NCBI RefSeq assembly: GCF_003334335.1 | Contig: NZ_QOWQ01000074.1 | Length of the DNA stretch: 6,951 nucleotides | DNA from: Escherichia coli | GTDB lineage: Bacteria > Pseudomonadota > Gammaproteobacteria > Enterobacterales > Enterobacteriaceae | Strand: one strand, 5' to 3' | Part shown: positions 4,363 through 6,001 of the stretch, in pieces | Numbering within the stretch: position 1 is the stretch's first letter | Layout of the letters: each line of letters opens with the position of its first letter | The notes under the pieces: model-generated | The model's input: the letters and a program-made list of their open reading frames with translations, nothing else | What the model was told of the DNA's origin: nothing | The model's database searches: none | Made by a program: the position numbers and the translations under genes

Positions 4363-4436
4363 CCTGCCAGTCACTCCGGGAATTAACTCTTTTCACCACA
4401 GTCTCCATTGCCGTGTTTAAACCAGTGGAGACGTCA

Positions 4437-6001
4437 ATGTCCAGAAAGAGAAAATCCAGGAGCACTATGGAAACCTGTTTTAAGATCCTTCAGCTCAAGT
4501 TCGACAAGAAGCTGACTAACCGTTGTATCGGACTGACGTTACACATCAGCGCCTCAACCGTTTTTGAGGTTCTTGCCCGCTTCAAAGCCTCTTCTCTGTC
4601 ATGGCCATTACCTGCTGATATATCCCATGACACGCTGGAGAAACTCATTTTTCCGCCCAAAGACACCTTTGCATCAGAGCTTGTAATGCCTGACATGTTG
4701 TACTTCGATACGGAAATGAGAAAACCAGGTGTGACGCGGCAACTGTTGTGGATGGAATACAAGGCACAGGCGGGTGACAAAGCGATGGGATACTCGCACT
4801 TCTGCCGTTGCTACCGGGAGTGGAAAAAACGCGACGTCTCTCCATGCGCCAGGAGCATCGTGCCGGTGAAAAGCTTTTTATCGACTTCTGTGGTCCTACG
4901 GTTTCTGTTATTAATCCGGACACCGGTGAGATACGCCGCGTGGCAATCTTCGTGGCCGTAATGGGGGCGTCCAACTATACCTACGTTGAAGCGTGCGAAG
5001 GTCAGGACATGATGTCATGGTTAAATGCCCACAGCCGTTGCCTGACCTTCCTGGGCGGCGTACCGAAGCTGCTCATCCCCGATAACCTCAGAAGCGCAGT
5101 GAAAAAGGCCGATCGATATGAGCCTGTCATCAACGACAGTTATCAGGCACTGGCTGAGCACTATGGCACGGTTATCATCCCGGCCCGACCACGCAAACCT
5201 AAAGATAAACCAAAAGCAGAAAACGGCGTCCTCATCGTCGAACGATGGCTTCTTGCCCGCATCCGTAATGAAACCTTCCACACGCTCAGGGCGCTGAATG
5301 CGCGCCTTAGGGAGTTACTGACAGACATGAATAACCGGCCAATGAAGGGGTACGGCAATCAAACCCGTGCAGAACGCTTCCGCATACTGGATGCGCCAGC
5401 ACTCTCTCCGCTGCCTCTGGCACCTTATGAATACACGGAATACAAAGCTGTGAAGGTTGGCCCTGACTACCACGTTGAATATGCCCGTCACTGGTACTCC
5501 GTTCCACACGAACTGGTCGGTCAGCGTCTGTCACTGAAGGCGGGGCAGTCGGTGGTACAGCTCTGGCACAAGGGGCAGTGTGTGGCGCAACATCCGCGCA
5601 GCACACATGAATATAAACACACAACCAATCCGCTTCACATGCCAGAGCGCCACCGGCAGCACGGGACATGGACACCGGAACGCCTGATCGAGCAGGGAAA
5701 ACGTACGGGCCCGTCCACAGGCCGGGTGGTTGAATCCATGCTGAAGGCAAAACCCCATCCGGAACTGGCTTATCGTGCAGTTCTGGGGCTGCTGGCACTT
5801 CAGAAAAAATACGGCCCGGAACGGCTGGAAAAGGCCTGTTACATTGCCCTGCACTATAACGCCCCTGACAGACGCTTTATCGACAATCTGCTGCGTCACC
5901 ATCGGGAGAACCTGGAGCTTCCATTATCCCGCCAGGGCGAACAACATCCGGCATATGCTTCAGAGCATGAAAACCTGCGTGGTCCGGGCTACTACCACTG
6001 A
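4437..6001 (+). pseudogene. istA: IS21-family transposase IstA, interrupted by a -1 frame change at an A6 run (4824-4829); otherwise full length
   Basis: The N-terminal HTH part is in frame 3 (MSRKRKSRSTMETCFKILQLKFDKKLTNRCIGL...SSLSWPLP...QLLWMEYK...YREWKK). The catalytic part is in frame 2 (RRLSMRQEHRAGEKLFIDFCGPTV...IFVAVMGASNYTYVEA...LIPDNLRSAV...) to TGA at 5999-6001. One extra A in the A6 run would give ...YREWKKTRRLSMRQEHRAGEKLF..., which joins the halves without a gap. Two candidate in-frame starts both have SD sequences: ATG 4437 (GGAG 4427-4430) and ATG 4467 (AGGAG 4458-4462). Confidence 0.85.

Follow-up and report, generated by a model that had tools for sequence, protein, structure and literature searches.

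The insertion sequence IS21 is reported to express its IstA protein also as a cointegrase that lacks the first eight residues (PMC10122671, citing Schmid et al. 1998). In the same account, initiation at either of two in-frame codons yields a transposase of approximately 46 kDa or a cointegrase of approximately 45 kDa (Schmid, Seitz & Haas 1998, via PMC10122671), the long form favouring simple insertion and the short form favouring replicon fusion from tandem copies, roles that are described there for IS21 only. Here we examine the beginning of istA in an ISSso4-like insertion sequence (IS) of the IS21 family, located in a stretch of Escherichia coli DNA of 6,951 nucleotides (contig NZ_QOWQ01000074.1, RefSeq assembly GCF_003334335.1), which we call the window and to which all coordinates refer. 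An initial annotation, made from the sequence alone, had noted two in-frame ATG codons at the start of istA, each preceded by a Shine-Dalgarno (SD) motif, and had suggested that the element may keep the two-isoform arrangement of IS21. We find this analogy to be sound and its premise, that two IstA isoforms are reported for IS21, to hold in the source cited above. Comparison with relatives supports a tandem-start design that appears real and conserved, and that is on balance probably explained most simply by dual initiation as in IS21, but the copy in the window is frameshifted and gives no product with a DDE domain.

Two other elements provide points of reference. In IS50 (Tn5), the proteins Tnp and Inh are encoded in one reading frame and differ at the N-terminus only, the shorter protein altering the outcome of transposition; Inh lacks 55 residues together with the DNA-binding region, is expressed mostly from a separate promoter and transcript, and acts as an inhibitor. 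In IS10, IS50 and further IS elements, leader RNA pairs with the SD motif or start of the transposase gene and masks the ribosome-binding site, which is known as 'fold-back inhibition' of outside transcripts. For a third element, IS100 of Yersinia pestis, we know of no report of IstA isoforms.

Two in-frame starts in istA

The sequence around both starts is CCAGTGGAGACGTCAATGTCCAGAAAGAGAAAATCCAGGAGCACTATGGAA, and from the first ATG to the second its codons are ATG TCC AGA AAG AGA AAA TCC AGG AGC ACT ATG. The first start, ATG1 (4437..4439; this and all other features described here lie on the forward strand), is preceded by GGAG (SD1, 4427..4430) with a 6-nt spacer (ACGTCA) and would open a long IstA, of 521 residues in intact copies, whose initial methionine (M1) is invariant in the alignment of relatives. 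The second start, ATG2 (4467..4469), stands 4 nt (CACT) behind AGGAG (SD2, 4458..4462), which falls within the long-form coding sequence, and would open a short IstA of 511 residues in intact copies; it is here that the coding sequences annotated by the Prokaryotic Genome Annotation Pipeline (PGAP) begin. Both motifs and both spacers are read off the sequence exactly as the initial annotation gave them, as is the distance of 30 nt, or 10 codons, between two ATGs that share the frame of the open reading frame (ORF) 4356..4961. The nine codons that separate them (4440..4466) encode SRKRKSRST, a lysine- and arginine-rich tail that is predicted to be disordered, and all three of its arginine codons are AGA or AGG, compared with 12% of arginine codons in the remainder of ISSso4-like istA. 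Duplex energies with the 16S tail are nearly equal, at -6.4 kcal/mol for SD1 and -6.6 kcal/mol for SD2, as calculated for an intact copy that is identical to the window in this region (L003).

The pair of motifs carries no significance by itself, given that GGAG followed after 4-9 nt by ATG occurs eight times in the window against 6.4 +/- 2.4 expected from shuffles; since the bare motif is at chance level, its significance must rest on context and conservation. Three in-frame codons further upstream, GTG 4413, GTG 4425 and TTG 4356, were considered as starts and rejected, being without an SD motif and unconserved in relatives.

Comparison with IS21, IS100 and IS50

The corresponding DNA of IS21 is AAAGGACATCAAC ATG CTG AGC AGA GAG GAC TTT TAC ATG (L089:401-427), that is, an ATG, eight codons containing AGAGAGGA, and a second ATG. 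IS21 and the element in the window share the IstA and IstB protein families, two in-frame starts just upstream of the first helix-turn-helix (HTH-1), a purine-rich internal SD motif made up in part of an AGA or AGG arginine codon, and a leader that is predicted to fold over the start region. They differ in the interval between the starts, which is eight codons in IS21 and ten here (seven in most relatives of the window element), and in the tail itself, LSREDFY in IS21 as against the strongly basic SRKRKSRST. They differ also in protein length, the IstA of the window element being of a long type of about 510-520 residues and that of IS21 having 390 residues, and in the kind of evidence available, two proteins with distinct activities being reported for IS21 alone and ISSso4 being known here from sequence.

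In IS100, the start of istA is ATG GTC ACT TTT GAG ACA GTT ATG (MVTFETVMEIKIL), which again places an ATG, seven codons and an ATG ahead of the HTH, and a perfect 8-bp hairpin, CUCUCCUG-AUU-CAGGAGAG, covers its SD1 (L102:179-224), as a 10-bp hairpin does in the window. IS100 differs in that its IstA is short and lacks a basic tail, and in that the second ATG follows only a weak SD-like sequence, GAGA. The tandem-start layout therefore appears to be general in the IS21 family and not peculiar to IS21. Unlike Inh of IS50, a short IstA would here retain the whole of HTH-1 and lose only the tail.

Conservation of the first start

Our set of close relatives comprised copies from Shigella, Salmonella and Edwardsiella at 82-97% nucleotide identity, and these conserve SD1 (GGAG) as well as the two ATGs, down to the copies of 82-83% identity. 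The codons between the ATGs vary synonymously or conservatively (AGA to AAA, replacing arginine with lysine; AAA to AAG; AGG to AGA; AGC to AGT; TCC to GCC; and ACT to TCC or TCA), with a consensus tail of MS(K/R)KRK(S/A)RS(T/S). Because these codons evolve as coding sequence, the stretch seems to be translated, and so ATG1 appears to be in use.

Searching at the protein level and scanning a single genome from each species yielded 80 more distant loci at 43-59% amino-acid identity, of which 73 were unique in the start region. All 73 share the same plan, in which a first start with a good SD motif is followed by a short basic peptide (for example MPKKRTS, MPAKRLS or MTKPKKKARTD), a second start and then the helix RKIKEVLRLK; hence two in-frame starts a few codons apart, upstream of HTH-1, were found in every relative. 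The first start is ATG in 53, GTG in 16 and TTG in 4, and its SD duplex reaches -4 kcal/mol or better in 73 of 73, with a median of -6.6 kcal/mol. The second start lies 5-11 codons downstream, most often seven (53/73), and is ATG in 71 and GTG in 2, no other codon being found.

It may be supposed that ATG2 is the sole start, giving the 511-residue protein of the PGAP annotation, and that ATG1 and its GGAG are a chance in-frame ATG of the leader. PGAP and many other gene callers do begin the protein there: a profile search of 1.84 billion representatives returned 39,703 relatives, the N-terminal anchor could be placed in 114 of the best 150 of these, and the annotated protein start coincided with the second start in 43 of the 114 and lay upstream in the other 71. 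Motifs of the form GGAG-N-ATG are common by chance, as seen above, and SD1 is buried in a stable predicted hairpin (see below) whereas SD2 is less tightly paired. Yet a chance ATG would not be expected to recur as an in-frame start behind a good SD motif in each of the 73 relatives, with M1 invariant, nor to be followed by codons that are coding-like, that conserve a lysine/arginine pattern and that keep a constant length of seven codons in 53 of 73. SD-masking hairpins are moreover usual at real IS transposase starts, as is generally known from IS10 and IS50, and we consider initiation at ATG2 alone to be highly improbable.

Evidence for a second start

The alternative to be taken more seriously is that ATG1 is the sole start, the second methionine being needed at helix 1 of HTH-1 and the purines before it resulting from the lysine/arginine tail and from leader pairing that locks a single start. 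As this explanation would have it, SD1 is strong in all 73 relatives, and the tail is conserved at the protein level. An AlphaFold2 model of IstA, built from 36 sequences (mean predicted local distance difference test score, pLDDT, 81.5), leaves residues 1-10 unstructured and non-helical, with pLDDT below 50 for residues 1-7, and places helix 1 of HTH-1 at residues 11-22, such that the methionine of ATG2 is the first residue of the helix. With the tail predicted to be disordered and helix 1 to begin at residue 11, the short form would begin where the folded HTH-1 begins; equally, in this model, the second methionine could be kept for structural reasons.

The nucleotides that precede the second start are less easily explained in this way. 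Measured against 468 in-frame internal ATGs of the same genes, the second starts of the 73 relatives are preceded by stronger SD motifs, with a median energy of -6.0 kcal/mol as opposed to -2.2 kcal/mol at the control ATGs (Mann-Whitney p 1e-21, a value drawn from phylogenetically related loci and thus not from independent samples), and 55% of second starts but 6% of controls reach -6 kcal/mol or better. Rare arginine codons are concentrated in the same place, AGA and AGG accounting for 78% (68/87) of arginine codons between the starts and 6.7% in the remainder of the genes, which the protein does not demand. SD-like nucleotides also persist where the amino acids differ, as in TTA GGA GTT TCA GTG and CAA GGA ATT TCC ATG, and in a Pseudomonas clade GGAG is formed by a GTG start followed by GAG. 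Judged by its AGGAG (-6.6 kcal/mol), by the family medians and by the bias in arginine codons, the internal start has a ribosome-binding site of its own at the level of sequence.

The identity of the second codon points the same way. Among the placed representatives from the best 150 of the 39,703 relatives, the second-start column is mostly methionine, and 14 cases with another residue were examined as DNA (12 that were looked up, together with L045 and L080). Eleven are valine (nine of the 12, plus L045 and L080) and all 11 use GTG, a codon that makes up 37% of valine codons in those genes, and multiplying the probabilities gene by gene gives 3.4e-6; the result of 11 out of 11 is an overstatement if the changes are recent, ATG to GTG being the only single-base path from methionine to valine and a one-mutation replacement thus necessarily GTG, as would also be seen if ATG1 were the only start. 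The remaining cases are one leucine, encoded by TTG, and two isoleucines (ATT and ATC), each with an ATG within 1-3 codons. A structural methionine should be replaced mostly by leucine or isoleucine, whereas 11 of the 14 replacements are valine encoded by GTG and one is leucine encoded by TTG, both start-capable, and these 12 come from lineages less than 50% identical to one another. That the replacements are mostly valine argues for a start-codon pattern rather than a structural methionine. Finally, an internal start in the same layout is reported to be used in IS21 (PMC10122671).

Structure of the leader RNA

The leader of istA is predicted to fold over both starts. SD1 is buried in a hairpin (4401..4432) formed by GUCUCCAUUG (4401-4410) and CAGUGGAGAC (4423-4432), with 10 bp in that stem and a predicted energy of -14.1 kcal/mol, and in the copies from Salmonella and Edwardsiella the hairpin is retained through changes that preserve its pairs. 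An equivalent hairpin between an anti-SD segment and SD1 is present in 89% of the 73 relatives, at -13.0 kcal/mol for the real sequences and -8.0 kcal/mol for shuffled ones. Outside this hairpin, minimum free energy and centroid folds of 4365-4480 predict that leader segments within 4367..4395 pair with the codons between the starts and with SD2 and ATG2: CCA (4367-69) with UGG (4468-70), CUCC.GGG (4374-4381) with UCC.AGGAG (4455-62), and CUCUUUU (4387-95) with GAAAGAG (4446-52). The fold has a z of -2.44, with 3 of 200 shuffles as good, and these outer pairs are weaker in the window than in the examples from relatives.

In the relatives, leader sequence lying 50-75 nt ahead of the first start pairs with the second start and the codons that lead up to it, as in ACGCGGGAUAAC/GGUUAUCCAUGCGU, ACGCAUUGUA/UACAAUGCGU and CUGGAAAUU/AAUUUCCAUG. 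RNAalifold, applied to a MAFFT alignment of 43 leaders, returned no consensus structure, the leaders being too diverged and variable in length to align, and a test of own against swapped duplexes was used in place of an alignment-based consensus. Pairing with a locus's own leader is at -15.8 kcal/mol against -10.8 kcal/mol with leaders exchanged among loci, the own leader being superior in 71 of 73; since a locus's own leader outperforms swapped leaders, the leader tracks codon changes in the coding arm, which amounts to covariation. No Rfam family matched in the window, and no promoter-like site emerged when positions 4150-4560 were scanned with a simple sigma-70 search.

The predicted hairpin over SD1 and the outer helices over SD2 and ATG2 resemble the masking seen in IS10 and IS50, from which they differ in being nested around two starts. 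Masking of SD2 by an anti-SD segment is a mild argument for SD2 as a genuine ribosome-binding site. The outer helices would, however, also hinder initiation at ATG1, their 3' arm lying partly in the footprint of a ribosome at that start, such that masking needs no second start and does not decide between initiation at both ATGs and initiation at ATG1 alone.

Weighing dual initiation

Several points weigh against dual initiation, in addition to the relatedness of the loci and the constrained path to GTG mentioned above. SD2 is weak in approximately one third of relatives (AAGAGA, -2.9 kcal/mol), which favours a single start at ATG1, and it is reduced to AGAAG in the Salmonella copy, and thus is not inviolable. 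The purine bias before the second start could stem from the lysine/arginine tail or from pairing with a pyrimidine-rich leader, and the second methionine, as the first helix residue of the model, could have a structural role. The methionine of ATG2 is not clearly the structural counterpart of Met9 of IS21; the closest solved structure to IstA, that of IS5376 IstA (PDB 8B4H, E 1e-13), aligns over residues 85-383 only. In the literature that we searched, ISSso4 was mentioned only in passing, and we found no protein, N-terminal or ribosome-profiling data for ISSso4-like elements. The copy in the window, lastly, can make neither full-length isoform, as described below.

Taking these points with the codon bias, the SD energies and the start-capable replacements, we judge it rather doubtful, if less so than use of ATG2 alone, that ATG1 is the only start. 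Dual initiation as in IS21 remains for us the probable explanation by a modest measure of confidence, and it is the element's two-start design, as opposed to the state of this particular copy, to which that judgement applies.

The copy of istA in the window is a pseudogene

The initial annotation missed a break in the reading frame. The window has a run of six adenines at 4824..4829 where intact copies align with seven (GGAAAAAACG in the window and GGAAAAAAACG in intact copies), a loss of one nucleotide, 390 nt beyond ATG1, that shifts the frame after Lys131, and the ORF from both ATGs consequently stops at 4959-4961. The product possible from ATG1 (4437..4961) has 174 residues, and that from ATG2 has 164; each would comprise HTH-1 and HTH-2 followed by a 43-residue out-of-frame tail, without a DDE domain, and the truncated ORF scores 46.5 bits on NF033546, under the cut-off of 160. 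The rest of istA (4829..6001), which encodes the DDE/rve core, a Mu-transposase-C-like barrel and C-terminal helices, is in another frame than the starts (ORF 4808..6001). Hence an open frame from the starts to the DDE domain is lacking in the window and present in intact copies such as NZ_AP022162. The istA of this copy is a pseudogene and neither full-length isoform is possible.

The allele with six adenines is rare, since of the 330 E. coli records in which the segment occurs only 13 have it, and an exact stretch of 2752 bases, flanks included, represents the same locus in ten genomes; the identical locus in strain G1/2 bears the PGAP note 'frameshifted'. Programmed -1 frameshifting at the run was considered and rejected, intact copies having seven adenines and a continuous ORF. 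The rarity of the allele and its presence at one exact locus in ten genomes indicate a lineage-specific mutation instead.

It is therefore very likely that both starts are, at this locus, relics of a decaying gene without a functional transposase, yielding at most the fragment of 164 or 174 residues with its HTH domains, which might bind the ends of the element and interfere with intact copies. Besides the deletion, the rarity of its allele and the sharing of this exact locus by ten genomes, the lack of a target-site duplication here, unlike at other copies, and the pseudogenes in an adjacent IS66 element are consistent with decay. Against this, the start region is base-for-base the same as in intact copies and istB is intact, and low-level -1 slippage on the six adenines would restore the frame (WKK-TRRLSMRQ), though there is no sign of programming. 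Decay concerns this copy and not the design, and is compatible with dual initiation in intact elements.

The ISSso4-like element and its surroundings

The element occupies 4235..6872 and measures 2638 bp here and 2639 bp when intact. Its ends are 5'-TG...CA-3' (TG at 4235, CA at 6871-6872), and it is exactly at 4235 and 6872 that independent copies cease to match the window; copies at 99.4-99.7% identity occur in many E. coli chromosomes and plasmids, annotated as istA/istB of the ISSso4 family. Strains MS 200-1 and GF60 are particularly rich in the element, with 22 and 30 matching places respectively. Inside the left end are five direct repeats of approximately 20 nt (4252..4363; consensus approximately ATCGATCAnnGTTTGGCAT, spacing 22-24 nt), found by repeat search and putative IstA binding sites, and the right end (6779..6872, its boundary taken from the comparison of copies) contains inverted copies of the terminal repeat at 6803-6867. 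Terminal TG...CA and multiple repeats inside both ends are traits of the IS21 family, as is the order of genes, the frameshifted istA (4437/4467-6001) being followed after a gap of 16 nt by istB (6018..6773) on the same strand. The latter is intact and, in the PGAP annotation as in our searches, encodes a helper AAA+ ATPase of the IstB type with 251 residues (257 bits on NF038214, cut-off 200). On NCBIfam NF033546, IstA in its reconstructed or intact form reaches 283.5 bits, and the reconstructed protein matches Pfam rve and Mu-transpos_C_2, with N-terminal HTH domains and a DDE core.

The hexamers adjoining the window copy differ, CGCTGG on the left (4229-4234) and GCGGAG on the right (6873-6878), and so no target-site duplication is present, unlike at two other copies of the element with clean 6-bp duplications (GGCAGG and GCGGAG). 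A short target-site duplication is a further trait of the IS21 family and holds for this type of element though not for the window copy, which suggests a rearrangement there after insertion. Immediately to the left, a gene for a small membrane protein (3970-4233; MLQIVGALILL...) is cut by the left end and annotated as missing its C-terminus, and PGAP treats the genes flanking the element as separate partial fragments, one without its C-terminus and one without its N-terminus.

Further upstream is an element of the IS66 family (1350-3570), with tnpA at approximately 1350-1679, tnpB at approximately 1666-2045 and tnpC at approximately 2088-3570; at the identical locus, RefSeq labels tnpB a pseudogene and tnpC frameshifted. 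Positions 1-1171 hold the C-terminal part of an autotransporter gene, including the end of the beta-barrel, which is annotated as incomplete with its N-terminus missing. Downstream, the RefSeq locus continues with IrmA, DUF905, DUF932 and antirestriction genes, and this combination with an incomplete autotransporter fits a decayed island region.

Discussion

The 5' end of istA in ISSso4-like elements may be viewed as a conserved start module, consisting of SD1 and ATG1, a short run of lysine and arginine codons, and SD2 and ATG2. In intact copies, ribosomes would most likely initiate at both ATGs, producing from ATG1 an IstA of 521 residues with a basic, probably disordered N-terminal tail of ten residues, and from ATG2 an IstA of 511 residues whose first residue would also be that of HTH-1. 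The purine-rich lysine and arginine codons would then be used twice, encoding the tail and acting as the SD motif for ATG2. The 10-bp hairpin predicted to bury SD1 and the weaker outer helices predicted to cover SD2 and ATG2 would keep expression low. By analogy with IS21, the two forms would differ in their assembly on the ends of the element, and the functional split between transposase and cointegrase may extend to ISSso4-like elements. In the window, the module is intact but useless, since its products end before the catalytic domain; at this locus the choice of start is moot, the gene being a pseudogene.

A broader proposal is that tandem starts and a nested leader lock form an ancestral switch of the IS21 family, in IS21, IS100 and the large clade with long IstA, that sets the ratio of isoforms. 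The apical hairpin would lock SD1 and the basal helices SD2 and ATG2, and as these locks are placed differently and are unequal in stability, the balance of long and short IstA would be set by the transcript and by the opening of the leader. Candidate transcripts would be those that arise at the junction promoter in tandem or circular elements, or read-in from outside. We think such a switch unlikely, but if it were real, whether the element inserts simply or forms cointegrates would be coupled to its physical state.

There are consequences for annotation as well. Gene callers disagree on the start of IstA across the family, and as PGAP and many others begin ISSso4-type IstA at ATG2, the conserved basic tail is missing from RefSeq and from most database entries. 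ISSso4-like elements are common on plasmids and chromosomes of E. coli, Shigella and Salmonella, and if both starts are used they would make two forms of transposase, as IS21 does. Were this the case, a behaviour reported for one element would become a family trait, with a bearing on replicon fusion and on the movement of resistance plasmids.

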